Shown here: positions 23,187 through 39,954 of the stretch, one piece after another | Layout of the letters: every line of letters begins with the position of its first letter | How positions within the stretch are numbered: the stretch's first letter is position 1 | From: an uncultured Planctomycetales bacterium | GTDB lineage: Bacteria; Omnitrophota; Gorgyraeia; Zapsychrales; JANLHA01 | Assembly (NCBI GenBank): GCA_964635405.1 | Contig: CAZWOH010000001.1 | Location: 8,589 to 57,863, forward strand | Direction: 5' to 3' | Length of the DNA stretch: 49,275 nucleotides | The notes under the pieces: model-generated | Database searches by the model: none | What the model saw: the letters and a program-made list of their open reading frames with translations, nothing else | What the model was told of the DNA's origin: nothing | Made by a program: the position numbers and the translations under genes

Positions 23187-23797
23187 TGCCCCGAGAAGTT
23201 GATCAGACATTTAAACAGGAAAAGGCGAAGCAGGAAAACGCCCCGATATTCCTTTACACGCTTGAGGCGTATGACGGTGTCAACGACTTGCGTTTAGCCA
23301 GCTTTGATCAGGATATCACTTATGACGGTGTTCTTTATTCTAAGTTTCCGATAACCCATGAGTTTATATCGGAAAACAATCAGGGGCAGATTGAGCAGGT
23401 AAAGGTCAGGCTTGGCAACGTCTCGAGGCTTATTGAGCTTTATCTTGAGCAGTACGATTTCAGAGGCAAGAAGGTCACGATCCGCATGGTTTGGGCGGAT
23501 CAGTTGTCAGATCCTGACGCTCACATGGATGACGTGTTTTATATCGATAATTATTCCGCTGATCAAAAGAATGTTGAGTTCACTTTGACCGGCAAGTTTG
23601 ACGTGCTGGGTGTGGACTTGCCAGCACGAAGGTACGCCCGCAATTATTGCGCTTGGAAATTCAAGTCAGTGGAGTGCGGGTATGTGGGAGGAGAGAGCGC
23701 ATGCAACAAAACGAAACAACGTTGCAAACAGCTGGAGAATTACCAGCGGTTCGGGGCGTTTCCGTCAGTGCCATCAAGACGAATTTACGTGATGTAG
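23183..23797 (+). CDS. Minor tail protein, gpL-like
   Basis: 204 aa with a C-terminal Cys cluster CAWKFKSVECGY...CNKTKQRC, as in the Fe-S-binding gpL family. Confidence 0.7.
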   Translation: MMPREVDQTFKQEKAKQENAPIFLYTLEAYDGVNDLRLASFDQDITYDGVLYSKFPITHEFISENNQGQIEQVKVRLGNVSRLIELYLEQYDFRGKKVTIRMVWADQLSDPDAHMDDVFYIDNYSADQKNVEFTLTGKFDVLGVDLPARRYARNYCAWKFKSVECGYVGGESACNKTKQRCKQLENYQRFGAFPSVPSRRIYVM

Positions 23798-23805
23798 AGA
23801 AACGC

Positions 23806-24198
23806 ATGGTTGAGAAATATCTCGGCGTTTCTTACCGTCACAGAGGACGCACGATGGACGGGCTTGATTGCTGGGGTTTTCTCAAGCTGGCGTACGCTGA
23901 TTTAGGCGTTTCTCTCTTTGATGTGGAGGATCTGGAATACAGCAAGATTTGGGGGCTTAAAGGCAAAGACTATTTCAGGGATAACTACGCCCACGATTGG
24001 GAGAAGGTAAGCGACCCGCAGATTTTAGACGGCATTTTGTTTGTTAATTCAAAAGGAATCGCTAATCATGCGGGAATAGTTTTAAGCAACAGGCGGTTTA
24101 TTCATTGTTGCCGTCAAGGCGTGATCGTGTCACGGCTCGATGATGTTTCATGGGTTAAAAAGATAGAAGGATTTTACAGGTTGAGAGCATGGTCATAA
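23806..24198 (+). CDS. NlpC/P60 peptidase tail protein, gpK-like
   Basis: Catalytic Cys context GLDCWGFLKLAY and downstream His (IANHAGIV). The start is uncertain; alternatives are 23701 or 23647. Confidence 0.8.
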   Translation: MVEKYLGVSYRHRGRTMDGLDCWGFLKLAYADLGVSLFDVEDLEYSKIWGLKGKDYFRDNYAHDWEKVSDPQILDGILFVNSKGIANHAGIVLSNRRFIHCCRQGVIVSRLDDVSWVKKIEGFYRLRAWS

Positions 24199-27100
24199 TT
24201 CGTAACATAGCCAATCCATTTAAGACCGAGGATGCGCAAGTCCGGGAGTTTAAGTATTCCCGGAGCAAATGCGTGCGGGATTATCTTGATGAGTCGGGTT
24301 TTGACTATCAGGGCAAGCGGGTGATCGTTACAGGCAAGCGCATTGAGGACTTGTCTGTGAGGATTGATAACGGTGACCAGATTGTCGTTGTGCCGGAGGT
24401 AAAAGCCCCGATTGTCGCTGTGGTGTCATGGATTATTTCCGCTGTCTGGGCGGCGGCCGTGGCGCATCCGTTTCTGTTTACGTTCTTCGTGCTTTCCATG
24501 GGCTATTCGATTTATCAATACATGAACCAGCCCAAGATGCCGGATTTCAATCTGGGAGCGGGAACGGGAATGGATGAGGGGTCGCCTACATATGGCTGGG
24601 ACGGCGTGCAGACTATTCAGGAGGTCGGCGTGCCGGTGGGGGTGGTTTACGGCAGGCACCGCATAGGCGGCAATATCGTTAATCAGTATTTATGGGAGGA
24701 CGGAGATAAACATTATCTCAATATCCTGCTCGCTCTTTGCGAAGGGGAGATCGAGTCGATTGAGGAAATAGAGTTAAACAATAATCCAATCGGTAACTTT
24801 GACGGTGTTTCAGTCGAGAAACGTTTCGGCGTGAATTATCAAAGCATGATCTCTAACTTTGAGGATCTGCACAATGTTTATCCGGTTAACGCCAATCTCA
24901 CGCAGAACAATCCCTATGTCTACACCACAATCGATTCGGATGTCGAGGCGTTTGAGATTCATTTGAGGCTTAGCAACGGGTTGTATCAGCAGAACTCAGG
25001 TTCTGGTGATATCCAAAGCTGGAGCGTGACTTACCGTGTTGAATACAAACTTCATTCAGAAAGTGTTTATATCGATTTGGGAGAGACGACGATATCAGGG
25101 CAGTCACGCACCAGCGTCCGGCGTGTCTTTAGAAAGACTGGGCTCACGCCCGGGCAATACGATATTCGTATTACCCGCACCAGTGAGGACAGCTCGCTTC
25201 AACCGTTAAAGCAAGGCGATCTTACGCTGTTTCAAATCGATGAGATTAAAACCGACGATTTGGTTTATCCAAATACCGCATTGCTCGGGCTTCATTTGTT
25301 GGCTACAGACCAATTAAGCGGATCAACGCCGAATATAACAGCGATCGTTGAGGGCAAAAAGGTTTCTATCCCGGACGTGCGAAACGCAGGCGTAGCGGTT
25401 GATTGGGAGGACTATTACTGGGACGGGAATGATTATCGGTTGCTTGCGGATGACACGCTTCTTTCGTGGGACGGTTCAACATACGTTCTGAGATATTCGG
25501 CGAATCCGGTGTGGTGTCTGCGGGATCTCGTGACAAATAAAAGATACGGTCTGGGTGAGTTTATTCTCACGGACAATTTGGATAACGCCTCACTTCTTGA
25601 GATGGCGCAGTATTGCGAGGAGAAAGTTCCAGACGGCCAAGGCGGGTTTGAGAAGCGGTTCAGGATGGATGTGGTTGTGGACAGTAATCATAAGGCGCTG
25701 GATATTTTGATTCAGTTATGCGCCACATTTAACGCCATGCCGGTGTATAGCGCAGGAGGACTCGCTTTTAAAATCGACAAGCCCACGATCCCAACGCAGT
25801 TATTTGGCATGGGGAATATTGTCAAAGATTCATTCGCTCAGAGCTGGAAAACGATGAAAGAAGTGCCGAACGTGATCGAGGTTCAGTTTACGGATAAAGA
25901 GAAAAACTATCAGCAGGAAACAATCGCATACATTGATGAGGAATCGTTAGCGTTGGGCGAGCCAATGCGCAAGAGCCAGATTCGTTTGTTTACCACGGGG
26001 GCGAGTTACGCCATTCGTGCGGCACGATACGCTTTGAAAGTCGCCCGGCATATTAACCGTTCAGTCGCTTTTAAGGCGGGCATTGACGCTGTCGCATGTC
26101 AGGCGGGTGATGTTATTTCGATCTCGCATGACGTTCCACAATGGGGATTTTCGGGCAGAGTTCAGGACGGCAGTTCATCGACGTTGATTAAGTTAGATCG
26201 GGCGATGGTTATTGAGGACGGCAAGTCTTACAAGATACAAATCAGGTTTAGTGATGACACGATTGAGGAACGGCTTATTACTTCGCCCACGGGGACGCAT
26301 AGCGAGATTGAGTGCGAGGCTTTCCCAGCGGACCCGCAGGCGTTTGATGTTTACGCTATTGGTGAAACGAACAAGGTGAAAAAAGATTTCCGGGTGGTGT
26401 CGGTTCAGCGTGAGGGCAAGCATGAGGTTCAAATATCTGCGCTTGAGTATAACGAGGCGGTCTATGACGATTCGGATATTATCCTGCCGCAGAATAATTA
26501 CTCATCGTTATCGAGCGAGATTCCGACAGTCAATAACCTCAGTTTGACGGAATCACTGGTAAAAAAGACGGACGGAACGATTGAGAACGCTATTGATGTC
26601 TGGTTTGATCGCCCGGCCTATATCGATCATTACGTTAAGTCATACGCTAAGGCGAAGATTTATATAAGCGATGATAACGGCCAGAGCTGGCGTGCGAGAG
26701 GCGAAACCACCGGCACGCAGTTTCGCATTATTGGCGACATTGTTGACGGGCATACGTATAAGGTCAAGGTGACTTCGCTGGATTCATTAAATGAGGAGAG
26801 TTCGCTCGCTACGGCCCCGGAGAGCGAGATCGCTGTTGTTGGTAAATCAGCGCCACCGTCCGATGTTCCATCGTTCTTAGTTAACCGTAACAGGGACATG
26901 TTGTATTTCGGCTGGACACCCATTCCTGATGTTGATGTTTGGGGTTATGAGATCAGGCGTGGGCTTGATTGGGAGAGCGCAGAATTTATCACGCTTCAGC
27001 AAGGGACGCATTATCTCACCAAGGATGTCAAGCGAGGCATCGGCCAGCGGTACTGGATTAAGGCGATCGACACGTCAGGCAATTATTCCGTGAACGCAAA

Positions 27101-27809
27101 AGAGGCTGTTGTCACTATCACCGAGATTCCGTTTAGGAACATTATCGCTGAATATCAGGAGCAACCTTTGTGGGAAGGGGCGAAGGTTAATATCGAGAAA
27201 GTAGACGAGTCAATCGTGATCACGGACGGCGTGATGTCAGGAACGTATACAACGCCGGTCAGGGATTTTGGATATGTGGCAAGTGTTTATATCGGAATAG
27301 ATGTGATCGTATCGACTTCATTGGGTAGGCGTTTTAACAGTGATGGAGTCACGAAGTTTAATGACAGTCCATCGTACCGTTTTACTGGCCAAGAAACTTT
27401 GCGGGCGGCGAGTTTCCGCATAAGGACTTCAGAAGACGGTATTACGTGGAAAGATTGGGAGGACTACCAGCCCGGCGATTATTTCTGTCGCTACTTTCAG
27501 ATCGAGTTGACGCTGTACAGGGAGAATATCGGCGACGCTATTACATGCTCAACGTTTCAGTATTTCGGGGATCTCCCGGACGTGGACGACTATGGCAATG
27601 ATTCGGTGGTTTCAGCGGTTGATGGCAAGCAGGTTTTCTTTGGGAAGACGTATCACGAGGAGCCGAGCGTCCATATTGAGATAAGAAGCGGGAACGGTAT
27701 TTATTCCCAATTCGTGGCGAAAGATATCACGAGTTTTACGGTGAAGCTATATGACGCCCAAGGCGTGGTGCAAACAGGAACGTTTGACTGGCACAGCCAT
27801 GGGATTTAG
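24189..27809 (+). CDS. Host-specificity / tail tip protein, gpJ-like with a gpI-like N-terminus
   Basis: 1206 aa. The N-terminal ~110 aa form a ubiquitin-like segment plus a hydrophobic stretch (APIVAVVSWIISAVWAAAVAHPFLFTFFVL). FN3-like region (APPSDVPSF...GWTPIPD). Confidence 0.85.
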   Translation: MVIIRNIANPFKTEDAQVREFKYSRSKCVRDYLDESGFDYQGKRVIVTGKRIEDLSVRIDNGDQIVVVPEVKAPIVAVVSWIISAVWAAAVAHPFLFTFFVLSMGYSIYQYMNQPKMPDFNLGAGTGMDEGSPTYGWDGVQTIQEVGVPVGVVYGRHRIGGNIVNQYLWEDGDKHYLNILLALCEGEIESIEEIELNNNPIGNFDGVSVEKRFGVNYQSMISNFEDLHNVYPVNANLTQNNPYVYTTIDSDVEAFEIHLRLSNGLYQQNSGSGDIQSWSVTYRVEYKLHSESVYIDLGETTISGQSRTSVRRVFRKTGLTPGQYDIRITRTSEDSSLQPLKQGDLTLFQIDEIKTDDLVYPNTALLGLHLLATDQLSGSTPNITAIVEGKKVSIPDVRNAGVAVDWEDYYWDGNDYRLLADDTLLSWDGSTYVLRYSANPVWCLRDLVTNKRYGLGEFILTDNLDNASLLEMAQYCEEKVPDGQGGFEKRFRMDVVVDSNHKALDILIQLCATFNAMPVYSAGGLAFKIDKPTIPTQLFGMGNIVKDSFAQSWKTMKEVPNVIEVQFTDKEKNYQQETIAYIDEESLALGEPMRKSQIRLFTTGASYAIRAARYALKVARHINRSVAFKAGIDAVACQAGDVISISHDVPQWGFSGRVQDGSSSTLIKLDRAMVIEDGKSYKIQIRFSDDTIEERLITSPTGTHSEIECEAFPADPQAFDVYAIGETNKVKKDFRVVSVQREGKHEVQISALEYNEAVYDDSDIILPQNNYSSLSSEIPTVNNLSLTESLVKKTDGTIENAIDVWFDRPAYIDHYVKSYAKAKIYISDDNGQSWRARGETTGTQFRIIGDIVDGHTYKVKVTSLDSLNEESSLATAPESEIAVVGKSAPPSDVPSFLVNRNRDMLYFGWTPIPDVDVWGYEIRRGLDWESAEFITLQQGTHYLTKDVKRGIGQRYWIKAIDTSGNYSVNAKEAVVTITEIPFRNIIAEYQEQPLWEGAKVNIEKVDESIVITDGVMSGTYTTPVRDFGYVASVYIGIDVIVSTSLGRRFNSDGVTKFNDSPSYRFTGQETLRAASFRIRTSEDGITWKDWEDYQPGDYFCRYFQIELTLYRENIGDAITCSTFQYFGDLPDVDDYGNDSVVSAVDGKQVFFGKTYHEEPSVHIEIRSGNGIYSQFVAKDITSFTVKLYDAQGVVQTGTFDWHSHGI

Positions 27810-28054: not shown

Positions 28055-28307
28055 ATGCAAGAAGGAGATTCCTGACGATATGGCGTATGTGTCGGTCAGG
28101 GGTGACATTATTCTGCGAATGCCTAAAAGAAAACCGATTGTGTTCACCTGCGCTGAGCAGGCTGAGAACTACGCCCGGCAGATGACGTTACATGACGTTT
28201 GCTGGATTCAGATGTTGCGTGAGCATGGGGTTGAGCTTTACGACATGAATGATGTCGCTGAGTCTTATAAGAAAAGGGAGGTGGGCGATGGCTTGGGACA
28301 AGACTAA
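28032..28307 (+). CDS. Hypothetical protein with an N-terminal CxxC (91 aa)
   Basis: SD aaggag. The sequence begins MDKLICSKCKKEIP. Confidence 0.55.
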   Translation: MDKLICSKCKKEIPDDMAYVSVRGDIILRMPKRKPIVFTCAEQAENYARQMTLHDVCWIQMLREHGVELYDMNDVAESYKKREVGDGLGQD

Positions 28308-28779
28308 ACCCGAGAACGATATGCTTTTGATTAACTTCCCGCCCGCTTGCCGTGCGAATTGGGATGCGTTGGAATTGTTGACGGACCCGGCGTTGCAGAT
28401 CACGAACGATAAGGTTGCCCCGGGTGCGGGAATTGAGGACACAAAACTCGCCCAGATAACCTCAGCCAATAAAGTTCATGGATCGGCGATTACGGGTTTG
28501 GGCAGTATTCCTTCTGCGGCGGGTGTTTTGCCGACAGAGAACTCGCCTAATAAGTTGAAGGCGGATGTCAGCGACACGACGCCGGAGTATTTGGACGGCC
28601 TTATTGATACGGCTATGTTTCAGGTGTCAGCGAGCGATCAATTGCAGTTGAAGGACAGCGGGGTATCGACAGCGAAACTTGAGAATGGATCGGCGTCACC
28701 CGGGAATAATAAGTATTACGGAACGAACGCATCAGGCACAAAAGGATTTTTTGATAAGACGGCGGTTTACGCCTCGTAA
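28288..28779 (+). CDS. Tail fibre protein (short), putative
   Basis: The N-terminus MAWDKTKPENDMLLINFPPACRANWDALE resembles the conserved N-terminal anchor of many phage fibres. SD gggaggtg. The track ORF opens at 28249. Confidence 0.6.
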   Translation: MAWDKTKPENDMLLINFPPACRANWDALELLTDPALQITNDKVAPGAGIEDTKLAQITSANKVHGSAITGLGSIPSAAGVLPTENSPNKLKADVSDTTPEYLDGLIDTAMFQVSASDQLQLKDSGVSTAKLENGSASPGNNKYYGTNASGTKGFFDKTAVYAS

Positions 28780-28787: not shown

Positions 28788-29513
28788 ATGGCTCATAAGA
28801 TGCCACCAAAACAATGCTCATCAAATACACCGGCATGGACGGATCCGGTTCTTACTGATTTGTCCACAAAGGTGCGCAAGGTTCATATCGATGAGCTCAG
28901 GGCGTTCTTGAACGCCGAGTTTGTGAGGCGTGGGCTTACGCAGGCGTCTTTTACGGACCCGACAATCACGGCTTTGGTCACGGAGATTAGAAAGGTTCAT
29001 GTGGACGAATTAAGATCAGAACTTGCGGCTTGTAAATCAGGCAGGGGCGAGTCTGGCTATTGTCCGCAAGATAGTTCCGGGTGTATGGATTTCACGGATC
29101 CTACGATTACGGCTCTTTCAACAGAGGTCAGAGGCATTCACTTTAGGCAGGCAATGCAGAAGGTTCAGGCTTTAATGACGGGTTGTATTTGTGAAACCGA
29201 GCAGTGCCAGTATTGCGCAGATTGCGGATATCACTATACGACGTGTTCGCACGCTGGCGTGGCATGTGATGACCATAAATATTCAGAGTGTCAGTATTCA
29301 ATAAATCATTATTGGAATTGCGCCAGTATCAACTTGCCGTCAGCGGCTGAGCATCCGTATAAATCGGCGAACCCGCCTGTGGCGTGGGACGGATATGTGC
29401 CGTGGGATTGGTGCGTGTATACGCCGCCGGGATCAAACTGGGGATCATGTGAGTATCAGGGCGGGCATAACCATACGGCGTGGAATTGTAAATGTAACCC
29501 TTATTCATGGTGA
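28788..29513 (+). CDS. Cys/Trp-rich protein with three N-terminal repeats. Candidate substrate of the adjacent radical SAM enzymes.
   Basis: 241 aa. SD aaggag. Repeats WTDPVLTDLSTKVRKVHIDELR, FTDPTITALVTEIRKVHVDELR and FTDPTITALSTEVRGIHFRQAM. 17 Cys in total, 13 of them in residues 133-241. Confidence 0.8.
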   Translation: MAHKMPPKQCSSNTPAWTDPVLTDLSTKVRKVHIDELRAFLNAEFVRRGLTQASFTDPTITALVTEIRKVHVDELRSELAACKSGRGESGYCPQDSSGCMDFTDPTITALSTEVRGIHFRQAMQKVQALMTGCICETEQCQYCADCGYHYTTCSHAGVACDDHKYSECQYSINHYWNCASINLPSAAEHPYKSANPPVAWDGYVPWDWCVYTPPGSNWGSCEYQGGHNHTAWNCKCNPYSW

Positions 29514-29518
29514 GGAAT

Positions 29519-29914
29519 ATGTTTCAGGATCAGGAAAAAGCGGATATAGCTTCATTCAAGGCGGCTCTACTGGAGAACGAGAACGCAGTAGATGAGCTTA
29601 TTCACTACAGCAAAAATAATCTGAATGATTTAACCGTTCAATGTTTCACGCATAAACGATTCATGAGCGTTCAGGACTTCATTGATGCCTTATGTCAGGC
29701 GTATCAGGATCTTGGTGTTGAGGGGTCGAATGGCAATATCTCTAATTTCGTTTTGTTCATCGCCGGGACGCACAGGGATAACCTTTACGCTTCGCATATC
29801 GTCGATTTAAGCGACGAGCATCGGCAAGTGTTTCGGGAAAGACTTGGACTGGATATTGAGGAAATCGAAACGGGATTAAGCAAATTGATTTGGAGGATAG
29901 ATGGCGGTATTTGA
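29519..29914 (+). CDS. Hypothetical protein (131 aa) between the Cys-rich protein and the rSAM genes
   Basis: The ATG at 29519 follows SD ggtgagg. The track ORF opens at 29507. It overlaps the start of rSAM-1. Confidence 0.6.
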   Translation: MFQDQEKADIASFKAALLENENAVDELIHYSKNNLNDLTVQCFTHKRFMSVQDFIDALCQAYQDLGVEGSNGNISNFVLFIAGTHRDNLYASHIVDLSDEHRQVFRERLGLDIEEIETGLSKLIWRIDGGI

Positions 29915-31118
29915 GCTTAAAAACAGCAAGGCGGTCGGTGACCTGCCATCGCAGTGCCGGGATGTTATCAAGCGGTACAAAGATGAGGGGATGTTTAATA
30001 TTGCCTCGATAACAAATGGCAAACAGGAATACACCACGGTGTATTTCCTTATGACGCAGGACTGCAATTTGCGGTGCGCCTACTGCTATCAGCCCAAAGA
30101 GTTCAGGCAGAAGGATACCGGCATTACACAGGACATTATTGACTCAACGATGGATTGGGTTTCTCGGACGTTTGATGAGCGCAAGATCAAGTTCAGCATC
30201 TTTGGCGGTGAGCCGTTTTTGAATTTCCCGATGCTCAAATATCTTTGCGATACCTATTGCATGTACCGGTATGTCGTGACAACAAACGGTTTGATTTTAC
30301 TTGAGGATCAGGACGTGCGTGATTGGGTGTTGAAGCATAAATATCATTTAAATTTGAGCGTGAGCGTCTCAGCACTGCGGAGTAAGTTCGGGAAATCATA
30401 TTTAAATAAGGTTAAGCCTTTGCTAGATCTTGTCATGTCGAACGGAGGGGATGTGCATTATGTGGTTGATGATCCCGAGAGAGAGTTTGTTTATGAAGAG
30501 ATTGTTTGGCTATATGAATACGGAGTGCCGATCGTACGGGTATCGTCAGCCCGGCATTGGGATATGGTCAAAAACAAGAATGAGGCTTTTAAAGATTTAT
30601 TTCGGCGTATCGCTGACTACGTTTATTTCACTGGCCAGCCAAAGTTTGGCAGGAGTCAGTGGGACATAGCGTTTAAGAATAACATTTACCGCAAGATGAA
30701 GGGCATTGCGCTCAAAGACGTGCCCCCGACTTTTTGCGGCTGTGGGTATCTGTATTTGGCGGTGAATAACAAGGGCGAGATTTATCCGTGCGACTTCTTC
30801 GCTAATTACCCGGAGTTCAAGATTGGGGACGTTTGGGACGGATTTAATGATACGGCGTTCTTCTTCAAGAAGATGGGAGATTGGATCGGCGAGCTTTACG
30901 AGCATTGCCGGGATTGTGAGGTTTGCTTTGACGGCGATATCAGGTGTTGTCCGAGAGCGATGTGCTTGGCGGAGAATTACACAGTAACCGGTAATCCGTT
31001 AAAACCAGCGCCGAATCACTGTTGGGCGAATCGTATTGAGACGGCGACGTATGAGTATATAGCGAAGAAGGCGATTGAGACCGGCATAGATGTTTTTTAT
31101 CACAAGGGGCGGGCATGA
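29901..31118 (+). CDS. Radical SAM / SPASM-domain enzyme 1 (anSME/peptide-maturase-like)
   Basis: CNLRCAYC (CX3CX2C), FGGEPFLNF, SPASM-type Cys pattern CGYLYLAVNNKGEIYPC ... HCRDCEVC...CCPRAMC...NHC. Confidence 0.9.
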   Translation: MAVFELKNSKAVGDLPSQCRDVIKRYKDEGMFNIASITNGKQEYTTVYFLMTQDCNLRCAYCYQPKEFRQKDTGITQDIIDSTMDWVSRTFDERKIKFSIFGGEPFLNFPMLKYLCDTYCMYRYVVTTNGLILLEDQDVRDWVLKHKYHLNLSVSVSALRSKFGKSYLNKVKPLLDLVMSNGGDVHYVVDDPEREFVYEEIVWLYEYGVPIVRVSSARHWDMVKNKNEAFKDLFRRIADYVYFTGQPKFGRSQWDIAFKNNIYRKMKGIALKDVPPTFCGCGYLYLAVNNKGEIYPCDFFANYPEFKIGDVWDGFNDTAFFFKKMGDWIGELYEHCRDCEVCFDGDIRCCPRAMCLAENYTVTGNPLKPAPNHCWANRIETATYEYIAKKAIETGIDVFYHKGRA

Positions 31119-32200
31119 GGATTCCGGTTTATAAATCAGTTTATCTATATCTGACGCACGCTTGCAACGCCAATTGCTCGTTTTGCTATCGCCGGGGGCT
31201 ATTTGAGCGCAACAAGATATCGACGCTGGGCCCTGTGAAGATGTCAAAGCAAACGGCGGATGACATTATCGATTTTTGCTTCGGAAGGCTCAAGTTGGCG
31301 CCCAAGTTCACGATTTACTTTTGGGGCGGTGAGCCAACGGTTAATTTTGAGGTTATTCAGCATGTGATGGAGAAATATCCGCAGATGCTCTTTCACATGA
31401 ACACCAACGGCGCTCTGGTCAATGAGCGAATGTATGGGTTTTTCTCACGGCACCGCAATATCGGGATCACATGGTCGTTTGGCAATTGCTATGAGAAATA
31501 CGGCGGGCCTCAGGGTAAGGCGCAGGCAGAGCCGTGGATGCTCAAATTGGTAAGGGAGAACCCGAACCACAACGTGAATTTCATGGTCGTGGAATATGAC
31601 CGGCTCAAAGAGGACTTTGATTTTATCGCCAAGAACATCACTCGTAATATAACGATTGACCTCGCCACACGCCACGATCACAAGAAAGAAGATTTGGAGA
31701 GGTTCGCAGAGCAATATTTCGAGTTGCTTGTTGAGCATGAGGGCGACTCAGAGATGTTTCAGACCTTGAACCCGGCGCTTCATAGCAACGCTTACGTGCG
31801 GGAGTTTGGGTTAAAGGCGCAGGTCAGGGATTTTCACTTCTGCAGGACGGGCTTGGATCGGCTTTTTATCGATACAGAGGGCGGTATTTGGCAATGCGAC
31901 AACATGTATATTTGCAGGCATAACCGGCTGGGTTCGGTGTATGACGGCATCGATTACTCAAAGCTGGATTATGTGTGGGAGATTGACGCAAATCGGGAGA
32001 GGTATCTCGGCAGGTTCTGCGAGGGTTGCGAGTTGTATAAGCGGTGTCCTCGCAATAAATGTTTGGGGCTGAATCTCGAGCACATGGGCGACATGTTTAA
32101 GCCGGAGCCGGGGTATTGCGCCATGAACAAGGTTATGGCGAAGGTCATTGATAAATATATCCAGTTGGAAAAAGAAAAGAAGGAGGCAGTTAATGTCTAA
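31115..32200 (+). CDS. Radical SAM / SPASM-domain enzyme 2
   Basis: CNANCSFC, WGGEPTVNF, FCRTGLDRLFIDTEGGIWQC ... FCEGCELYKRCPRNKC ... YC. ATGA-coupled to enzyme 1. Confidence 0.9.
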   Translation: MRIPVYKSVYLYLTHACNANCSFCYRRGLFERNKISTLGPVKMSKQTADDIIDFCFGRLKLAPKFTIYFWGGEPTVNFEVIQHVMEKYPQMLFHMNTNGALVNERMYGFFSRHRNIGITWSFGNCYEKYGGPQGKAQAEPWMLKLVRENPNHNVNFMVVEYDRLKEDFDFIAKNITRNITIDLATRHDHKKEDLERFAEQYFELLVEHEGDSEMFQTLNPALHSNAYVREFGLKAQVRDFHFCRTGLDRLFIDTEGGIWQCDNMYICRHNRLGSVYDGIDYSKLDYVWEIDANRERYLGRFCEGCELYKRCPRNKCLGLNLEHMGDMFKPEPGYCAMNKVMAKVIDKYIQLEKEKKEAVNV

Positions 32201-33353
32201 CGAGGAAGTGGTCGGCGGTAAAACCAAAGACGAAATTAAAAGCATTGATTTGTTTGTTACCGAGCAGTGCAACATGAACTGCGATTACTGTTTTCATCCT
32301 AAGAGCGAGGCGGTGCTTTCGGTGGATCAGGGAAAAAAGATTCTCGCTCGGATGAAGGAGTTGAGTCCTGCCGCTTTGCAGATCACGTTCTTTGGAGGTG
32401 AGCCGCTGTTGTATCCGCAGACAGTTTTGGATCTCGCTCAATACGCCCGGGAACTGTGGCCAGCGGATAAAGAAGGACGGCATATATCGACGTTCTCGAT
32501 CTCAACGAATGGCATGTTTTTCGATGAGGCAGTGTTTAAGAAGTTTGCTGAATTAGGCATGGCGGTTCAAGTCAGCTGTGACGGAGATGAGATCACGCAC
32601 ACCGAATATCGGCATGGCGACTATAAGCGGATTATCGAGAACATGAAGAAGATTTTGGCGATTAAGCCGGACATGAGCGTGCGCATGACGTTTACGCCCA
32701 AGACGGTGGGCAGGCTCGCCATAAACGTGCAGTATCTTCATGAGCTTGGTGTCACCAAAATCATGCACCACGCTGTTATGGAGGAGGATTGGACGGATGA
32801 GGCGGTTGAGCAATACCGTTACCAGCTTGGTCAGATTTATCATTACCGCAGGTATTGCAAACGTCAGGGTTTGCCGCTTGAGATAGCGTTTATCGATAAG
32901 CCGCTCAGGATCGTTAACGATGAGGCACCCCCGGAGAAAGAATATTGTCAGGCGGGCAAAAGTTATATCGCCATTTTGGATAATGGCGACGTTTATCCCT
33001 GTCATCGTGCGGCCAGCGCTCGGATATTCAAGCTCGGGAATATCTTTCAGGAGAGACCGTTCATTCGGGGCATCTTCCTGAATATTGATAAGGAATACAC
33101 TGGCTGTTGGAGAAACTGCCCTCACGCCCGCACGTGCCACAGTTGCGTGATCACGCACTATAAGGTCAATCAGGAACTCACGGTCCCGGTCACGAAGTAT
33201 TGCCGGATATGCGCAGTTGAGAGTGAGCAGGCTTCGGGGTTCTTGCCGGTCGAGTTGGCGGATCGACGTGAGCGCATGCTTTATAAGGTTGGTCAGGTCT
33301 TGGTGGATGTCGCCAAGCAGAACGAGGAAATATTGGAAGCGTTAAAAAAATAA
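32193..33353 (+). CDS. Radical SAM / SPASM-domain enzyme 3
   Basis: CNMNCDYC, FGGEPLLYP, YCQAGKSYIAILDNGDVYPC ... GCWRNCPHARTCHSC ... YCRIC. The ATG at 32193 follows SD aaggagg. The track ORF opens at 32148. Confidence 0.9.
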   Translation: MSNEEVVGGKTKDEIKSIDLFVTEQCNMNCDYCFHPKSEAVLSVDQGKKILARMKELSPAALQITFFGGEPLLYPQTVLDLAQYARELWPADKEGRHISTFSISTNGMFFDEAVFKKFAELGMAVQVSCDGDEITHTEYRHGDYKRIIENMKKILAIKPDMSVRMTFTPKTVGRLAINVQYLHELGVTKIMHHAVMEEDWTDEAVEQYRYQLGQIYHYRRYCKRQGLPLEIAFIDKPLRIVNDEAPPEKEYCQAGKSYIAILDNGDVYPCHRAASARIFKLGNIFQERPFIRGIFLNIDKEYTGCWRNCPHARTCHSCVITHYKVNQELTVPVTKYCRICAVESEQASGFLPVELADRRERMLYKVGQVLVDVAKQNEEILEALKK

Positions 33354-33365
33354 GGAGGTATGGCA

Positions 33366-33656
33366 ATGGGAAAAGTTATGAACCATGAGGAGATAGTCGT
33401 TGGGGTTGTTGTTAAGGCGTTAAGTCCCGCTGTTTACAATCCGGTAGGCGGGCAGTCAGCTTCGTTCGCCATGATCACCGCAGAGGGCGGGGATATGCGG
33501 TATTTCGTGAACGGACAGAACCCAAACGCATCATCCGGCGTGTTGTTGGAAGAAGGGGACATTGTCGAGCTTCCGTCCATTTATCACATTAAGGATTTTA
33601 AGGTGATAAAGGCGGGCGACGATGATGGCAAGCTCGTTGTGACTTATGAAATATAA
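33366..33656 (+). CDS. Small hypothetical beta-rich protein (96 aa)
   Basis: SD aaggagg. The ATG at 33366 has better spacing than the one at 33360. Confidence 0.6.
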   Translation: MGKVMNHEEIVVGVVVKALSPAVYNPVGGQSASFAMITAEGGDMRYFVNGQNPNASSGVLLEEGDIVELPSIYHIKDFKVIKAGDDDGKLVVTYEI

Positions 33657-33672
33657 AAAGGAGGATTTTGCG

Positions 33673-34224
33673 ATGGATCATATTAAACACCAGAAAAAGA
33701 ACAGGATAATAAATCGAGTCACGGAGATAGTGACCGAGGGCGGATTACCCAAGACCGGTCAGACGATGGTTTATCAAATGGGCGACGATGGTTATTACCA
33801 AATGGGGTATCCAATCGGCGGCGCTCAAAGATTTATCGATAACGGCGACGGCACCGTGGTTGATATGGCGACCGGGCTTATGTGGATTAAAGATCCGCAG
33901 GCGGCAGGCTTTGGAATGACTATGTATTGGTATGATGCCATCAACGCTTGCGAGAATTTATTTTACGCCGGGCATGATGATTGGCGTTTGCCGAATATTA
34001 ATGAGCTCATGTCAATCGTGGATCACTCGAGGTACAACCCGGCGTTTGACACGATGTTTTTCGTTCCGGCTCCGGATACTTGGACTCCTTATTGGTCATC
34101 AACGATTTGCGCTCCATGGCCGGACGGGGCATGGTGCTTATATCCTTACGATGGTTATAAAACTTCATGGGGTAGACCTTGGGATATGTGTTTCGTGCGT
34201 CCAGTTCGTGGTGGCAGATCATAA
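33673..34224 (+). CDS. DUF1566 (Lcl C-terminal-like) domain protein
   Basis: DNGDGTVVDMATGLMWIKDP and HDDWRLPNINELMSIVD are the signature segments of DUF1566. SD aaaggagg. The track ORF opens at 33646. Confidence 0.8.
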   Translation: MDHIKHQKKNRIINRVTEIVTEGGLPKTGQTMVYQMGDDGYYQMGYPIGGAQRFIDNGDGTVVDMATGLMWIKDPQAAGFGMTMYWYDAINACENLFYAGHDDWRLPNINELMSIVDHSRYNPAFDTMFFVPAPDTWTPYWSSTICAPWPDGAWCLYPYDGYKTSWGRPWDMCFVRPVRGGRS

Positions 34225-34239: not shown

Positions 34240-34419
34240 ATGGCAAAAGTTATAGTCGAATACAAGGATGGGAAAAAGGTTGTGACGTATCCTTCAGGCG
34301 AAAAGAGGGAACACACGAAGGAAAGTTTAACCACCGCAAAAGAGATGTTCTTGCGGCGCAGAGATAAACTCAACGAGCAGATCGCTCTCATTGATGATGA
34401 CATTAAGAAGATTGGGTAG
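34240..34419 (+). CDS. Small hypothetical protein (59 aa, below the track cutoff)
   Basis: Hand-translated MAKVIVEYKDGKKVVTYPSGEK...DDDIKKIG. SD aaaggagg 7 nt upstream. Confidence 0.5.
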   Translation: MAKVIVEYKDGKKVVTYPSGEKREHTKESLTTAKEMFLRRRDKLNEQIALIDDDIKKIG

Positions 34420-34423
34420 TCTT

Positions 34424-34690
34424 ATGCAGAATGGCGGGGAATGGTCAAAGTTTATAACGCCGGTGCTTGTAACGATCGCTATCTTCATGCTCGGCACGAT
34501 CATGTCGCAGGTGAGCCGCATTGATGAGAAGTTGTTTCATCATTTGGCGAACGACGAGATTCACATGCCAAGAAGCCTTTATGTGTCCAAGGCTGAGTTT
34601 GAGATGCAAGGGCGGTTTATCGAAAAGGAAAACGACCGGATCATCAAGGCGATCGATGAGCTCAGGCGTGATTTAAAGTCGAAGAAGTGA
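34424..34690 (+). CDS. Single-pass membrane protein (holin-like candidate)
   Basis: TM segment FITPVLVTIAIFMLGTIM followed by a charged coiled C-terminus. The start is uncertain; the track ORF opens at 34391. Confidence 0.5.
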   Translation: MQNGGEWSKFITPVLVTIAIFMLGTIMSQVSRIDEKLFHHLANDEIHMPRSLYVSKAEFEMQGRFIEKENDRIIKAIDELRRDLKSKK

Positions 34691-34697
34691 GGTGTGT

Positions 34698-35030
34698 ATG
34701 GCTGAAGATGAGAAATTCAATTTACTGAAATTCTTGGGGAGTTTCTTTCAGTTTTTGCCGTGGGTGAAAACTTTACGCTATGCGGCGGGGATAGCGTTGA
34801 TTGGTTTTATTGGGCTTACTATTTATCGAGCGTTCTTTATGCCGACGGAAACAACAAAGCAGGAAACGCATATCATCGCCCAGCAGGGCGCCCAAGTCAC
34901 GATTGACCAAAAGAGAGAGGAAAAGAAGCCCGGGATCGAGGTCAGTCCTTTCGTGGAAGGCTATGGATTCGCTGAATCAGATAACCGCAAGGGTGTGGGC
35001 GGTAAGGCTGGTGTTCGGGTAGAGTTTTAG
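34698..35030 (+). CDS. Single-pass membrane protein
   Basis: TM segment AAGIALIGFIGLTIYRAFFM. SD gaggtg before the ATG at 34698. Confidence 0.5.
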   Translation: MAEDEKFNLLKFLGSFFQFLPWVKTLRYAAGIALIGFIGLTIYRAFFMPTETTKQETHIIAQQGAQVTIDQKREEKKPGIEVSPFVEGYGFAESDNRKGVGGKAGVRVEF

Positions 35031-35964: not shown

Positions 35965-36060
35965 AACAATTTGGAATGAGTCCCGAGTTCGAAGGAATAA
36001 ATCCCGGACTTTAAAAAAGCAAAACCTTCGCTGGTTACATTGACCGGCGAAGGTTTTTTT
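35965..36060 (+). ncRNA. Candidate short transcript, copy 1 (promoter + conserved core + intrinsic terminator)
   Basis: TTGATT (35930) N16 TATAAA (35952). The 51-nt core gtcccgagttcgaaggaataaatcccggactttaaaaaagcaaaaccttcg (35980-36030) is shared with copy 2. Terminator ccttcgctgg/ccggcgaagg plus T7. Confidence 0.3.
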
Positions 36061-36090: not shown

Positions 36091-36120
36091 GCTATATTGC
36101 TATAAATATAGTAATATAGC
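36091..36120. promoter_or_regulatory. 30-bp near-perfect palindrome. Candidate operator of the RM controller.
   Basis: gctatattgctataaatatagtaatatagc: 26 of 30 positions are self-complementary. It lies 19 nt upstream of the RHH gene and overlaps -10-like tataaat/taatat. Confidence 0.5.
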
Positions 36121-36138
36121 GTAAAAGGAGTTATCCTT

Positions 36139-36327
36139 ATGAGTAAATCCGAGCGAGAAACGAATATGAAAAAAACAACTATCGAAATCTGTGAGGATCA
36201 ATATTTTTTTCTAAAAGAGAAGGCGCTTGAATTACAGAAGCAAAATAAAAACGCTTCTATCATATCTATAATTCGTGAGCTGATTGATCGAGATATGAAA
36301 GAATGGAATAGATCTAAGAAAAAATAA
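36139..36327 (+). CDS. Ribbon-helix-helix (CopG-like) regulator, putative RM controller
   Basis: KKTTIEICEDQYFFLKEKALELQKQ...IISIIRELIDRDM fits a beta-strand plus two-helix RHH layout. SD aaggag. Confidence 0.6.
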   Translation: MSKSERETNMKKTTIEICEDQYFFLKEKALELQKQNKNASIISIIRELIDRDMKEWNRSKKK

Positions 36328-36341
36328 TGATCGGAGAATAA

Positions 36342-37406
36342 ATGCGTTTTATTGGCTGTAAGAATAATATATTAGAGCAAATTTATGAATTTATTTTATC
36401 TAAAAAGATTTATGGTGGCACTTTTTTTGATATTTTTAGCGGGACAACGAGTGTAGCCTCTTTCTTTAAGCGCAAAGGATATCGGGTTATTTCTAATGAC
36501 AATTTATATTTCTCGTATGTTCTACAAAAGGCATATATTGAGACGAATGCTCAACCCGATTTTTCACGACTATTAAAAATGGTCAAATTGCCCCCTAATG
36601 GGGAAACAGCTCCTTTGAACAAGGTAATTAAGTACTTAAATTCCCTTAATGGCAATAAAGGGTTTGTATACAAAAACTATACTGACAAAGGAACGCAAGG
36701 CAGTGAACATATAAGAATGTATTTTCAATCCGATAACGGCGGTCGTATTGATGGCGTAAGGCAAAAGATTGAAGAGTGGAATGGTTCTGGTTTGTTGTTG
36801 GAGTCAGAGTATTTTCTTCTTCTTGCTTCATTAATTGAAGCCGTGCCTTCGATTTCAAATATTTCTGGAACATATGGGGCTTTTTTAAAGTTTTGGGAAC
36901 GGAGAACATTTAATCCATTGATGCTTAAAGTTCCGGAGATTATTATTAATTCGTACAAAGATAACAAGGCCTTTAATGAAGACGGTACTGATCTTTGCAA
37001 AAATATTGAATGCGATATTTTATATATTGATCCACCATATAACGCACGCCAATATGCACCCAATTATCATGTGTTAGAGACTGTTGCTCGGTACGACAAC
37101 CCTGTTGTATCCGGGAAAAGTGGTATGCGGAATTATGAAAAAATGAAGTCGCAGTTTTGTAAGCGACAAACAGCTATCGAAGCCCTTAAGAAAATTGTGA
37201 CAACGGGTAAATATAAGCATTTAATTTTAAGTTATAACAACGAAGGGCTGATGACGGATCGGGATATTCGACAAGCGCTTGCTTCTGCGGGAGCTACAGT
37301 TGAGAAGGAAGTAATAGAGTACAGGAGATATAAAAGTCACAGCCATGGCGATAATGGCAAAAAGAAGGTTAATGAATTGCTTTACTATATAAATAATGGA
37401 AGGTAA
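36342..37406 (+). CDS. N6-adenine DNA methyltransferase (D12/Dam-like class)
   Basis: N-terminal MRFIGCKNNIL and FFDIFSGTTSV (motif I). ILYIDPPYNARQYAPNYH (motif IV). Confidence 0.9.
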   Translation: MRFIGCKNNILEQIYEFILSKKIYGGTFFDIFSGTTSVASFFKRKGYRVISNDNLYFSYVLQKAYIETNAQPDFSRLLKMVKLPPNGETAPLNKVIKYLNSLNGNKGFVYKNYTDKGTQGSEHIRMYFQSDNGGRIDGVRQKIEEWNGSGLLLESEYFLLLASLIEAVPSISNISGTYGAFLKFWERRTFNPLMLKVPEIIINSYKDNKAFNEDGTDLCKNIECDILYIDPPYNARQYAPNYHVLETVARYDNPVVSGKSGMRNYEKMKSQFCKRQTAIEALKKIVTTGKYKHLILSYNNEGLMTDRDIRQALASAGATVEKEVIEYRRYKSHSHGDNGKKKVNELLYYINNGR

Positions 37407-37408
37407 AA

Positions 37409-38626
37409 ATGGCAAAAGACAAGCACGATCTTAATTTTCAAGGGGATATGTTTTCCACTAACACCTATTTCTTAGAAGAAGAAATCAAAAAATGTATTCT
37501 TAAAAACAAATTATCAGCGCACGAGAAGGAAATATTAGAAGAAATTAAAGAGATCAGTTTGGGATATGTAAAAAGCAAAGTCAAAATTGAAAAAAACAAA
37601 TCAAGGCTTGATGCCATTGATGCACAAAAAGAAAAAGTGCCGCTGAAAGGGCATATTGATAAAAAAGATATGGTCAAACTTCCTGATTGGATCAAGGAGA
37701 AGATTGACGATGCTTTTATTGTCGGGAAGTCTGGGAGGGTTGTAAGCGTTGGAGGCAAGAAATACCACTTGGACAACCCTTTAAATGATCTTGATGGTGG
37801 TGTTTGGACTTATTTTCTACGATCAGTGATAAACACACGGTATCCAGTATCTGGACCTGAAGGATTTGCGCATCATATCCGTAAAATACACCCCACGCCA
37901 AAGCCTCCGCAATTGATGCGTGATATTATCAAGTTTTTTACTAAAAAGAATGAATGGGTGCTTGATTATTTTATGGGTGTCGGCGGGACACTGCTTGGTG
38001 CATCTTTGTGTGATCGGAATGCAATAGGTATTGATTTAAATAAAAAATATATTGAGGCATATAAGAAGGCTTCAAAAGAACTTGGGTTGAAAGAGCAGGT
38101 TTGTTTGTGCGGTGATTCCTTGGAGATTTTAAGCTCATCTAAAATATCGGAAATTACAAGGAATGACAGAATATCGCTAATCTGTATCGATCCTCCTTAT
38201 GGGGATATGATGAGCAGAAAGAAGACAGGAGAGGCGGCGAAAAAAAAGCTTTCTACAGAATCAACGCCATTTACCGATCACAGCCAAGACCTTGGGAATG
38301 TTAGCAAGGAAACGTTTTTAACGTTACTGAGAAAATCTGTTGAGGGCGCCATTAATTATTTGAAAGATAAGCGCTACGTAATTGTTTTCACAAAAGACTT
38401 TCAGCCTTCTGGAAAGGATTTAAATTTATTGCATTACGATATTATCAAAGAACTCAGCGGGATTACAGGATTGAACTATGTAGGAATGAAAATATGGGCG
38501 GATGAAAGTATTAATTTATATCCTTATGGTTATCCGTATGCTTTTGTTCCAAACCAATTGCATCAATATATACTTGTTTTTAGAAAAGAAGCTCAAGTGG
38601 ATCGTAAGGCCGCTAAGGCATCTTGA
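37409..38626 (+). CDS. Second DNA methyltransferase (N6A/N4C type)
   Basis: VLDYFMGVGGTLLGA (motif I-like) followed by ISLICIDPPYGDMMS (motif IV). Confidence 0.8.
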   Translation: MAKDKHDLNFQGDMFSTNTYFLEEEIKKCILKNKLSAHEKEILEEIKEISLGYVKSKVKIEKNKSRLDAIDAQKEKVPLKGHIDKKDMVKLPDWIKEKIDDAFIVGKSGRVVSVGGKKYHLDNPLNDLDGGVWTYFLRSVINTRYPVSGPEGFAHHIRKIHPTPKPPQLMRDIIKFFTKKNEWVLDYFMGVGGTLLGASLCDRNAIGIDLNKKYIEAYKKASKELGLKEQVCLCGDSLEILSSSKISEITRNDRISLICIDPPYGDMMSRKKTGEAAKKKLSTESTPFTDHSQDLGNVSKETFLTLLRKSVEGAINYLKDKRYVIVFTKDFQPSGKDLNLLHYDIIKELSGITGLNYVGMKIWADESINLYPYGYPYAFVPNQLHQYILVFRKEAQVDRKAAKAS

Positions 38627-39954
38627 ATTGTCTGTGGGGTATTTTGAGAGGTAAAAATGTCGCCCCTATCAGAAAGGATAAGTGCCACTTGCTGAATGTT
38701 GGTGATATTATTATTCCCGCCAAATAGGACGACAAATCTCTTTACTTGATATTCAGGATATTGAGGATTTATCCATTCTTGTTCAAGAGGATCGTAATCA
38801 TTTAATTCATCGAGTCCGTTCTGGAGATTTGAGATCTTTTTACCCTCGATTAATAGAATTTCTTTGAGTGTATGGTTGCATACAATTAGGTCTGGAATTC
38901 GCAGAGGGCTATCATTGGCATCTTTTTTGGGTAGAGCAACAAAAGCACCGTCTGATTTCCTAAAATAGCCACGTTCGCAACCGGCATGATTTTCATAGAT
39001 GCATTCGGTTCCTTGCAACGATTCGCATATTAAATGGGTGAAGATAGTTGCAATTTTTTCCGAAGAGTTCTCATAATACCAGTACGTTTGCGCAGGGGTG
39101 TTATGAGGTATCGTTAGGCCGTCCATTCCTACGTTAAGTAAATTTAGAATGGCTACAAATTTGTTTGCTCGAACACCACGTTGATTTATATTGTGTTGTA
39201 TAACAGTTATATTATTTGTCCAGCCGAGCTTCCGTATGCTTTTCAGAATTAAAGATAGTGCGCCCATGTTTGGATCATGAATAATAGTGTGCGGCGCTTG
39301 CGGTTTGTCAAGCCTCCCAGATACTGTAATATGGGAAGTTGTTTTATTTATTAATATTGGGGTGTTCCCTCTCGGTGGGCGGCGCATGTTGTTCTTAAAC
39401 GAGATCAGCTCATCGATAGATGAGAAAGGTTTGAATATATTTGGATCAAGACGCCTACCTATAATTTCCACCCCTAATGTCAACAGCATTCGGGTGCCAA
39501 ATATATTGGTATCTGTAGAATGGTCGGCTGAGTGCGGAACCTGATAGTTGTATAGCATTATTTTCTTAACTTGAGGATAATAAAGATCAATGTAAACAAA
39601 TTTTGATCCCCGTTGATATACCCCGGTATTTCGTGATTCCTCATCAGTAGTTTTTGTTTCTTCTATTGCGTAAATCGGGGTTGAGGTCTCGTTAGGCTCG
39701 GAGTCTTGAGCAAATACTAGAAAGTCAACAAAACTTTGGTTGCCGCTTACTAGCTTTATGGTCAACTCTTGAATAAGGGGGGATGAAAACCCTGAGACCG
39801 CATAAGTAAAAGTAAATCTATTACTTACTATTGATGGCTTGATAATGAGGTTAGCAAATGATATCTGAGAGCGATTGTCTGAACAATATTTCTCAAGGAT
39901 CACTCGCAGGACGTTCTTTTTCGGGCGTTCTTCAGTTAGTATCCATAATTTCAT
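38593..39954 (-). CDS. Putative type II restriction endonuclease
   Basis: 453 aa, convergent with and 34-nt overlapping the methyltransferase gene. PD-(D/E)xK-like IPDLIVCNHTLKEILLIEGKK. There is no other recognisable domain. Confidence 0.6.
   Translation of the reverse strand: MKLWILTEERPKKNVLRVILEKYCSDNRSQISFANLIIKPSIVSNRFTFTYAVSGFSSPLIQELTIKLVSGNQSFVDFLVFAQDSEPNETSTPIYAIEETKTTDEESRNTGVYQRGSKFVYIDLYYPQVKKIMLYNYQVPHSADHSTDTNIFGTRMLLTLGVEIIGRRLDPNIFKPFSSIDELISFKNNMRRPPRGNTPILINKTTSHITVSGRLDKPQAPHTIIHDPNMGALSLILKSIRKLGWTNNITVIQHNINQRGVRANKFVAILNLLNVGMDGLTIPHNTPAQTYWYYENSSEKIATIFTHLICESLQGTECIYENHAGCERGYFRKSDGAFVALPKKDANDSPLRIPDLIVCNHTLKEILLIEGKKISNLQNGLDELNDYDPLEQEWINPQYPEYQVKRFVVLFGGNNNITNIQQVALILSDRGDIFTSQNTPQTIQDALAALRST

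Follow-up and report, generated by a model that had tools for sequence, protein, structure and literature searches.

The stretch analysed here (the window), 49,275 nucleotides (nt) of contig CAZWOH010000001.1 from an uncultured bacterium, carries a complete temperate siphovirus-type prophage, with genes for a serine recombinase, an SNF2 helicase, a primase-polymerase, a ParB-methylase, a terminase, a portal and a major head protein, and with tail genes for a tape measure, minor tail proteins, an NlpC/P60 protein and gpJ. After gpJ and a short fibre gene sits a plus-strand block that encodes a Cys-rich protein and three radical S-adenosylmethionine (SAM)/SPASM enzymes, rSAM1, rSAM2 and rSAM3, which we propose crosslink the tip of that protein (Table 1). 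A preliminary description, made from the letters alone, had listed the elements of this block, the overlapping starts and stops of the enzyme genes and the CX3CX2C, GGEP and SPASM-type Cys motifs, and all of these are present; its sizes of 131 and 96 amino acids (aa) for two unassigned open reading frames (ORFs), orfB and orfF, hold from their second ATGs, whereas the first ATGs give 135 and 98 aa. The genes are tightly packed: rSAM1 and rSAM2 meet in an ATGA overlap, rSAM2 and rSAM3 overlap by 8 nt, and the Cys-rich gene and orfB, as well as orfB and rSAM1, also overlap. Scanning the window showed neither a promoter-like site nor a strong terminator-like hairpin on the plus strand of the block; weak plus-strand matches at 30204, 34783 and 35071 were not above chance level, and the first strong plus-strand terminator-like hairpin lies at 36021-36057.

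Table 1. The enzyme block and neighbouring tail genes, in positions of the window.
Feature	Position	Strand	Details
Cys-rich fibre-type protein, proposed substrate	28788-29513	+	241 aa; 17 Cys, 8 Trp; 13 Cys in residues 133-241
orfB, role unassigned, lineage-specific accessory	29507-29914	+	135 aa from first ATG, 131 aa from second
rSAM1, radical SAM/SPASM enzyme	29901-31118	+	405 aa; CX3CX2C = C55/C59/C62
rSAM2, radical SAM/SPASM enzyme	31115-32200	+	361 aa; CX3CX2C = C17/C21/C24
rSAM3, radical SAM/SPASM enzyme	32193-33353	+	386 aa from ATG; TTG at 32148; CX3CX2C = C26/C30/C33
orfF, variable accessory gene	33360-33656	+	98 aa, 96 aa from second ATG
Lcl_C (formerly DUF1566) protein, variable accessory	33646-34224	+	192 aa; PF07603 E 8.6e-28
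gpJ-like tail tip protein	24189-27809	+	1206 aa; FNIII-A_GpJ E 4.7e-21, Phage-tail_3 E 2.6e-14
Short fibre-like protein, directly 5' of Cys-rich gene	28249-28779	+	176 aa; weak PHROG match
NlpC/P60 tail protein	23647-24198		-

Judged from motifs and profile matches, all three enzymes are members of the radical SAM superfamily and of its SPASM-domain group. In such proteins the CX3CX2C motif binds the SAM-cleaving [4Fe-4S] cluster and a GGEP-type motif binds SAM, while the SPASM feature is a C-terminal set of 7-8 Cys (CX9-15GX4C ... CX2CX5CX3C ... C) with two auxiliary [4Fe-4S] clusters. CX3CX2C, GGEP and a C-terminal SPASM-type Cys set occur in each of rSAM1-3. The Pfam Radical_SAM model (PF04055, cut-off 29.5 bits) scored rSAM1 (31.1 bits) and rSAM3 (61.3 bits) above its cut-off and rSAM2 (27.4 bits) just below; SPASM models were passed by rSAM3 (PF13186, 22.8 bits, cut-off 21.5) and by rSAM1 (TIGR04085, 32.3 bits, cut-off 27). 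For rSAM2 the SPASM assignment comes solely from the Cys pattern (CRTGLDRLFIDTEGGIWQC, then CEGCELYKRCPRNKC...C), and this enzyme aligned over its full length to the PapB-type model (96.6 bits). Searches of Pfam and NCBIfam thus confirmed the Radical_SAM and SPASM assignments and matched the Lcl_C protein to its family. The three enzymes fall into distinct orthologue groups (BLAST scores of 170-830 bits within a group and 40-140 between groups), with rSAM1 and rSAM2 as the closer paralogue pair. Every orthologue keeps the CX3CX2C, GGEP and SPASM Cys motifs, suggesting that all three have been retained as active enzymes.

The closest named relatives point towards crosslinking chemistry of one kind. 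PapB (NF047865) was the best named family for rSAM1, rSAM2 and rSAM3 alike (111, 96.6 and 169.4 bits; cut-off 340); in the same order, the SCIFF maturase/CteB model (TIGR03974) gave 72.9, 36 and 106.8 bits (cut-off 425), QhpD (TIGR03906) 53.1, 63.1 and 68.1 bits (cut-off 453), anSME (TIGR03942) 42, 36.6 and 68.1 bits (cut-off 349) and prokaryotic viperin (NF038283) 37.5, 33.8 and 58.1 bits (cut-off 180), the last over the N-terminal radical SAM core only, and none of these cut-offs was reached. The top-scoring families, PapB, SCIFF/CteB, CXXX-repeat, CcpM and QhpD, are thioether-forming maturases of Cys-rich substrates, whose chemistry has been reviewed (PMC8326336); weaker matches include anSME, DynA, cyclophane maturases and rSAM_nif11. 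Because the enzymes belong to no named family, chemistry cannot be transferred to them by homology. The rSAM3 clade is discrete, with about 75 clusters of 350-420 aa at 35% identity or more, and beyond it similarity drops sharply to PapB and SCIFF maturases of about 450 aa at 25-30% identity. The best match of rSAM3 in the Protein Data Bank (PDB) was CteB (5WGG, E 9.5e-19), in which an N-terminal recognition element (RRE) for RiPPs (peptides made on the ribosome and modified after translation), a winged helix-turn-helix, binds the leader peptide (PMC8326336). This alignment starts only at CteB residue 91, which argues that rSAM1-3 lack an RRE; 7-45 residues are all that precede their CX3CX2C region.

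The Cys-rich protein consists of two domains. Residues 1-132 (28788-29183) form a three-repeat domain, in which WTDxTITAxxTKIRKVHIDELR occurs three times, and residues 133-241 (29184-29510) form a Cys-rich domain of 109 residues with 13 Cys. The core of the latter, C-[IV]-C-[EN]-x-E-x-C-x-Y-C-x-D-C-G, is invariant, as are E138, Y142 and D145 within it and W206 and W218 beyond it, and the domain ends in W-x-C-x-C-N-P-x-x-W. Cys accounts for 10 of the 21 invariant positions of the protein (C92, C133, C135, C140, C143, C146, C160, C178, C234 and C236), and Trp, Tyr and His are abundant in the Cys-rich domain. A search of the protein collection returned 57 homologues, and the C-terminal domain is rare, with 12 representative matches among 1.84 billion proteins; the Cys-rich protein had no match in the Pfam scan, NCBIfam, PHROGs or PDB sequences.

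The three-repeat domain is portable: unrelated secreted proteins have it at one end or the other, N- or C-terminal (P0050 and P0052-P0057), its carriers include Patescibacteria and a Rep3 plasmid-like element, and although the Pfam scan found no match for it, the homologue P0007 has a precomputed match to PF27469. Of the two such proteins whose surroundings were inspected, neither P0055, which has the three repeats without any Cys-rich domain, nor P0052, in which they are joined to an unrelated short Cys-rich tail, has radical SAM neighbours, tying the enzymes to the C-terminal Cys-rich domain. The same two proteins led us to reject the idea that the repeat domain recruits the enzymes. Two further pairings were considered and dropped: that each repeat serves one enzyme, since loci with two enzymes still hold three repeats, and that rSAM2 is paired with an extra segment of the tip, since the tip in L125 is full-length and only rSAM1 and rSAM3 were seen in 17 kb of that locus.

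The association of the enzymes with the Cys-rich protein was followed by an ORF and BLAST survey of 117 related loci, 4 reached through the contigs of homologues and 113 drawn from viral, genomic and metagenomic contigs, which form 20 clusters at 80% identity and extend down to 30% identity. A radical SAM gene directly followed the Cys-rich gene in all 85 loci with at least 1.2 kb of downstream sequence. Orthologues of rSAM1, rSAM2 and rSAM3 were all present, in the same order, in 55 of the 57 loci with at least 4.2 kb downstream; the other two (L004 and L046) have one rSAM1/2-like enzyme and an rSAM3 orthologue. The rSAM1 group was represented in every locus, and the rSAM3 group in every locus with enough sequence. 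The genomic setting varies: in L123 the order is permuted to rSAM1-rSAM3-CysRich-rSAM2, after Baseplate_J; L002, L124 and L125 are myovirus-type modules with Phage_base_V, PAAR and gp25 that retain the cassette; and in L122, a 107-kb phage contig, the cassette lies downstream of a tape-measure-type protein and several tail genes. Since the linkage is kept across tail architectures and through a permutation of gene order, it reflects more than the shared descent of one phage, and its recurrence in about 120 independent contigs places the arrangement far beyond chance.

No gene other than those for the Cys-rich protein and the enzymes was common to the surveyed loci, and with 38 nt of intergenic sequence in L001 there is no room for a hidden small precursor. 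orfB is confined to the closer clusters (31-98% identity); divergent loci, for example L001, L002, L004, L122 and L127, lack it. orfF is absent from the close relatives L047, L049, L072-L074 and L105, where two small membrane-protein genes directly follow rSAM3; the presence or absence of the Lcl_C protein matches that of orfF, and both are missing from some 92%-identical relatives. The short fibre-like protein is conserved with the cassette in the close cluster only. The functional unit is therefore four genes, the Cys-rich protein and three enzymes, with orfB, orfF and Lcl_C outside the core: all seven genes of the block in the preliminary description exist, but three of them are lineage-specific. 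In a cluster in which the Cys-rich protein is 61% identical, gpJ is 30% and the enzymes 64-72% identical, compared with about 80-85% for the genes after rSAM3; these lower values suggest that gpJ, the Cys-rich gene and the enzymes have been exchanged as one module in the siphovirus lineage.

The identity of the Cys-rich protein as a fibre is indicated by one homologue and by gene position. P0182 carries a Peptidase_S74 domain (PF13884) at residues 246-297 (52 bits against a cut-off of 22, E 9e-14), which starts directly after ...CKCSPFSW, where the window protein ends, and rSAM1, rSAM2 and rSAM3 follow its gene. Peptidase_S74 is an intramolecular, self-cleaving trimerisation chaperone of phage tail fibres and spikes. 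In all loci, the Cys-rich gene lies inside a tail or baseplate module. Together, the S74 fusion and this constant position argue that the protein is a fibre-type component with the Cys-rich domain at its distal end, and the case for its presence in the virion is fairly strong.

Genomic relatives of the cassette reside in Candidatus Omnitrophota chromosomes. One of these genomes is complete, that of Ca. Velamenicoccus archaeovorus LiM (91% identity), an organism from a methanogenic enrichment (PMC12583861). The preliminary description held that an anaerobic host would be required, and these relatives agree with it: given the methanogenic origin of LiM, oxygen-sensitive enzymes have a suitable host. 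A few carrier bins are labelled otherwise, as Planctomycetales, Saccharibacteria (a 1.8-kb contig) or Dehalococcoidales (L051, L054 and L055; protein P0005); these labels probably reflect mis-binning or mislabelling, with a broader host range as the alternative. In the LiM prophage (L050, NZ_CP019384.1 1851632-1872366), QAT17824 is the Cys-rich protein, QAT17822 rSAM1 and QAT17821 rSAM2, and by gene order QAT17823 should be orfB and QAT17820 rSAM3. Published tables give 3-18 transcripts per million for QAT17819-17826, and QAT17819-17828 were undetected in three metaproteomes, like almost all neighbouring prophage genes (PMC12583861). Low transcription and undetected proteins, as in the rest of the prophage, suggest that the cassette consists of silent late genes and not of morons expressed in the lysogen. 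Across QAT17804-17837 almost all proteins were undetected, with QAT17811 weakly detected and QAT17813 abundant (320-509 parts per million by relative intensity-based absolute quantification; PMC12583861 Tables S1/S2); QAT17813 may lie at the edge of the prophage and be expressed in the lysogen.

We consider it probable, though well short of secure, that the phage-encoded radical SAM/SPASM enzymes crosslink the Cys-rich tip of a tail-fibre-type virion protein, and that the bonds would most likely be thioethers. The preliminary description had suggested a virion or receptor-binding protein, Cys-rich and encoded next to the enzymes, as the target of modification, and strict linkage over about 20 lineages and several tail architectures, together with the S74 homologue, supports that suggestion. 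The parts of this reading differ in strength: the case for the Cys-rich protein as the enzyme substrate is strong, that for thioethers, as predicted from sequence, moderate, and that for stability as the benefit of the crosslinks speculative. In the mechanism we envisage, the 241-aa protein would be a tail-fibre-type virion protein whose C-terminal 109 residues form a Cys-rich distal tip, on which the three RRE-less enzymes, co-transcribed and translationally coupled, would act during late gene expression in the anoxic host cytoplasm. Each enzyme would convert SAM to a 5'-deoxyadenosyl radical that abstracts hydrogen from a side chain or backbone carbon, allowing a bond to form with a partner residue. 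The likeliest products would be thioether bridges from Cys to carbon, of ranthionine or sactionine type and not open to reduction; candidate acceptors are the invariant Glu138 and Asp145 and other residues within the CxCExExCxYCxDCG core, and each of the three enzymes may install different bridges. Such bridges would make the tip rigid and resistant to proteases and reductants, and would take the place of disulfides, which do not last in a reducing, sulfidic habitat. Stated in full, as the receptor-binding tip of a trimeric fibre, in phages of anaerobic bacteria, that a dedicated RRE-less trio stitches with several thioether (or other radical) crosslinks that cannot be reduced (a 'RiPP on a protein' that substitutes for a disulfide knot where habitats are permanently reducing and would be the first radical SAM chemistry on a virion structural protein), the proposal seems to us evenly balanced between holding and failing.

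Several observations weigh against crosslinking of a fibre tip. AlphaFold2 (AF2) modelled the N-terminal domain confidently, with three helices, and the C-terminal tip domain poorly; searches of the tip domain with Foldseek against the PDB and BFVD gave no match with E below 0.8, leaving the fibre tip without fold-level support. The window protein has no S74 domain and ends where one would begin. No RRE or other recognisable docking domain was found in the enzymes that would explain how they find the substrate, and their scores lie far under every named-family cut-off (at most 169 against at least 340 bits). rSAM2 is dispensable in some lineages, being missing in L125, while L004 and L046 have a single rSAM1/2-like enzyme. 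In L126, a 7-kb contig with a more distant trio of radical SAM genes, no Cys-rich partner is encoded, and the C140-x2-C143-x2-C146 (CX2CX2C) spacing within the Cys-rich core also resembles a metal or Fe-S binding motif.

Some of these points fit a reading in which substrate and virion role are as we propose but the chemistry is not thioether formation: the enzymes would make C-C or C-O crosslinks on Trp or Tyr, convert Cys to formylglycine or epimerise residues, and the Cys would mainly bind Zn or Fe-S or form disulfides. SPASM enzymes also carry out Lys-Trp, Glu-Tyr, ether and formylglycine chemistry (PMC8326336), and anSME, DynA and cyclophane maturases are among the weaker matches of the enzymes. 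The tip offers substrates for such reactions in W206, W218 and Y142 and in its general richness in Trp, Tyr and His, its CX2CX2C spacing is ferredoxin-like, and the L126 trio has no Cys-rich partner nearby. However, each of the three enzymes scores best against named families of maturases that form thioethers in Cys-rich substrates, nearly half of the invariant positions (10 of 21) are Cys, and the anSME target motif C/S-x-P/A-x-R does not occur in the Cys-rich protein, in which the context of C92 is C-P-Q-D. We therefore regard a different chemistry as unlikely, while giving it some weight. The ferredoxin-like spacing can be taken further, to a protein that is not a substrate at all but a metal or Fe-S electron donor, a scaffold or a Zn-stabilised tip, with the enzymes acting elsewhere, on a different tail protein, on DNA or a nucleotide, or on some molecule of the host. 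A reductant is required by radical SAM enzymes, phages are known to encode such enzymes for DNA and nucleotide modification (PMC8989533), and the related myovirus-like loci hold further radical SAM, glycosyltransferase and thiamine pyrophosphate (TPP)-enzyme genes close by. Yet no other gene co-occurs with the enzymes across lineages, the nearest named relatives of the enzymes all act on peptides or proteins, and the Cys-rich protein has neither the CP motif nor the size of a ferredoxin and belongs to a family with fibre-type architecture and an S74 fusion; another substrate is thus highly improbable.

The cassette might instead be a phage-borne RiPP-like cluster, a possibility that the preliminary description also raised, with the repeat domain as leader, the Cys-rich part as core and a crosslinked product that leaves the cell, at lysis or from the lysogen, to serve as toxin, signal or factor of superinfection exclusion. 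Sactipeptide and ranthipeptide clusters typically pair a precursor with radical SAM/SPASM maturases in this way (PMC8326336). There are known cases of long leaders that resemble proteins, the enzyme matches include rSAM_nif11, and the C-terminal part is poorly ordered in AF2; prophage-borne biosynthetic clusters exist (bioRxiv 10.1101/2020.10.01.322628). Against a released product, no locus has a leader peptidase, an exporter, an immunity gene or an RRE; the genes are always within tail or baseplate modules and translationally coupled to them; the cassette has been swapped with gpJ as one module; and P0182 bears the S74 chaperone of trimeric fibres. The cassette also occurs in L122, in which an inspected stretch of 20 kb showed neither an integrase nor any other gene for lysogeny, and expression of the cassette in the LiM lysogen is no higher than that of the rest of the prophage, with its proteins undetected. 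Between a virion component and a released RiPP, the virion component is clearly favoured, and we think the RiPP-like cluster quite improbable.

Beyond the four-gene unit, the relatives and the window hold further genes of interest. In L126 (ENA ERZ27256810 k141_2701402), positions 558-3771 encode enzymes of 330, 383 and 358 aa, all with CX3CX2C, the third 35% identical to rSAM3; downstream, up to 6439, lie an ORF of 49 aa, two proteins poor in Cys (433 and 298 aa) and one of 105 aa with repeats of the fibre type. This trio may be a sister system with a different substrate. The myovirus-like relatives have more radical SAM genes (374-433 aa) after the cassette (L002/L003, 12383-16894; L124, 8992-15275; L125, 10187-17137), along with genes for GT2-like glycosyltransferases, TPP/transketolase-like proteins, methyltransferases, sugar epimerases and aminotransferases, and their tail-fibre region looks like a hot spot for modification enzymes.

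Of the accessory genes in the window, orfB and orfF had no significant match in Pfam, NCBIfam or PHROGs; the AF2 model of orfB was unusable (predicted local distance difference test score 55), and its position would suit a fibre assembly factor. The Lcl_C protein is possibly a second adhesin. After the cassette, two small ORFs (34391-35030; 99 and 112 aa) with hydrophobic, membrane-protein-like stretches are 63-97% identical in relatives, have no PHROG match and, from where they lie, resemble holins or spanins; the NlpC/P60 tail protein aside, an endolysin was not recognised. Past the strong terminator, G+C falls from about 49% to 34-44% over 36100-49275, which may be a separate island or a prophage cargo region. 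It encodes a D12 class DNA methyltransferase (36342-37406), an N6_N4 DNA methyltransferase (37409-38626) and large ORFs without a Pfam match, such as 41592-44243 (883 aa). In the early region of the prophage, 9284-10582 encodes a ParB_N domain fused to an N6_N4 DNA methylase.

The arrangement appears to be new, as the preliminary description had surmised. Neither a nucleotide search with the block nor a tblastn search with the Cys-rich protein matched any of 50,697 GenBank phages, and in GenBank phages the relatives of rSAM3 all fall under 30% identity, most of them in jumbo phages and in gut phage contigs that carry no annotation. In the literature we found no description of radical SAM/SPASM enzymes linked to a phage tail fibre, nor of the LiM locus tags. 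The logic of a precursor protein with SPASM maturases is known; what is new is a multi-enzyme cassette for a phage fibre protein, together with the enzyme and substrate families. If crosslinking of the fibre tip is correct, radical SAM/SPASM crosslinking would extend from small peptides and one dehydrogenase subunit to virus particles, defining a new class of virion maturation that is enzyme-installed and oxygen-sensitive and suggesting how extracellular proteins become knotted where disulfides are unstable. Enzymology would gain three co-evolved RRE-less maturases with a defined 109-residue substrate, the crosslinked scaffold might be of use for engineering stable binders, and the phages of Omnitrophota, a phylum whose uncultivated, ultra-small members live as predators and parasites, would become open to functional study for the first time.

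The cassette shares features with several known systems. The PapB (freyrasin) and CteB (CteA) maturases are the best-scoring families and resemble rSAM1-3 in having a radical SAM core with a full SPASM domain and in acting on Cys-dense substrates; here, in contrast, there is no CteB-type RRE, three paralogous enzymes serve one substrate, and that substrate is a fibre-type protein and not a 45-aa peptide. More broadly, neither the window nor any related locus yielded the RRE, PqqD, peptidase or ABC transporter of a canonical RiPP cluster, and the candidate precursor is a 241-aa two-domain protein. anSME, a radical SAM/SPASM enzyme of comparable length (about 370-400 aa), likewise has no RRE and takes as substrate a protein and not a leader-guided peptide, but the cassette has no sulfatase nearby and its Cys-rich protein no sulfatase motif. 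Fibres and spikes of the S74 type, such as endosialidase and T5 pb1, share with the cassette the domain that follows the tip in P0182 and the fibre position of the gene in the tail module; the window tip, however, has no detectable similarity to known fibre tips, and known S74 fibres have no accompanying radical SAM enzymes. Virion proteins undergo other covalent processing, including the isopeptide crosslinks of the HK97 capsid, prohead proteolysis and the phage-encoded glycosylation of mycobacteriophage virions, and the proposed modification would similarly strengthen or decorate a virion protein. To our knowledge, the known processing is autocatalytic, proteolytic or by glycosyl transfer, with none that uses radical SAM chemistry or a dedicated multi-enzyme cassette for one fibre protein. 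QhpD, which is among the matches of all three enzymes, differs in being one enzyme and not three, in its smaller substrate (compared with 241 aa, a 109-aa core and 13 Cys) and in lying outside phage tail modules, and no qhpA- or qhpC-type dehydrogenase gene was found in any locus examined. Yet this radical SAM/SPASM enzyme makes several intramolecular Cys-to-Asp and Cys-to-Glu thioether bridges in QhpC (PMC8326336), and the Cys-rich protein has an invariant Glu and Asp among its Cys; moreover, QhpC is not released as a peptide once crosslinked but stays in a larger protein assembly, quinohemoprotein amine dehydrogenase, where it has a structural role as the gamma subunit (PMC8326336), as the crosslinked tip would in the virion.

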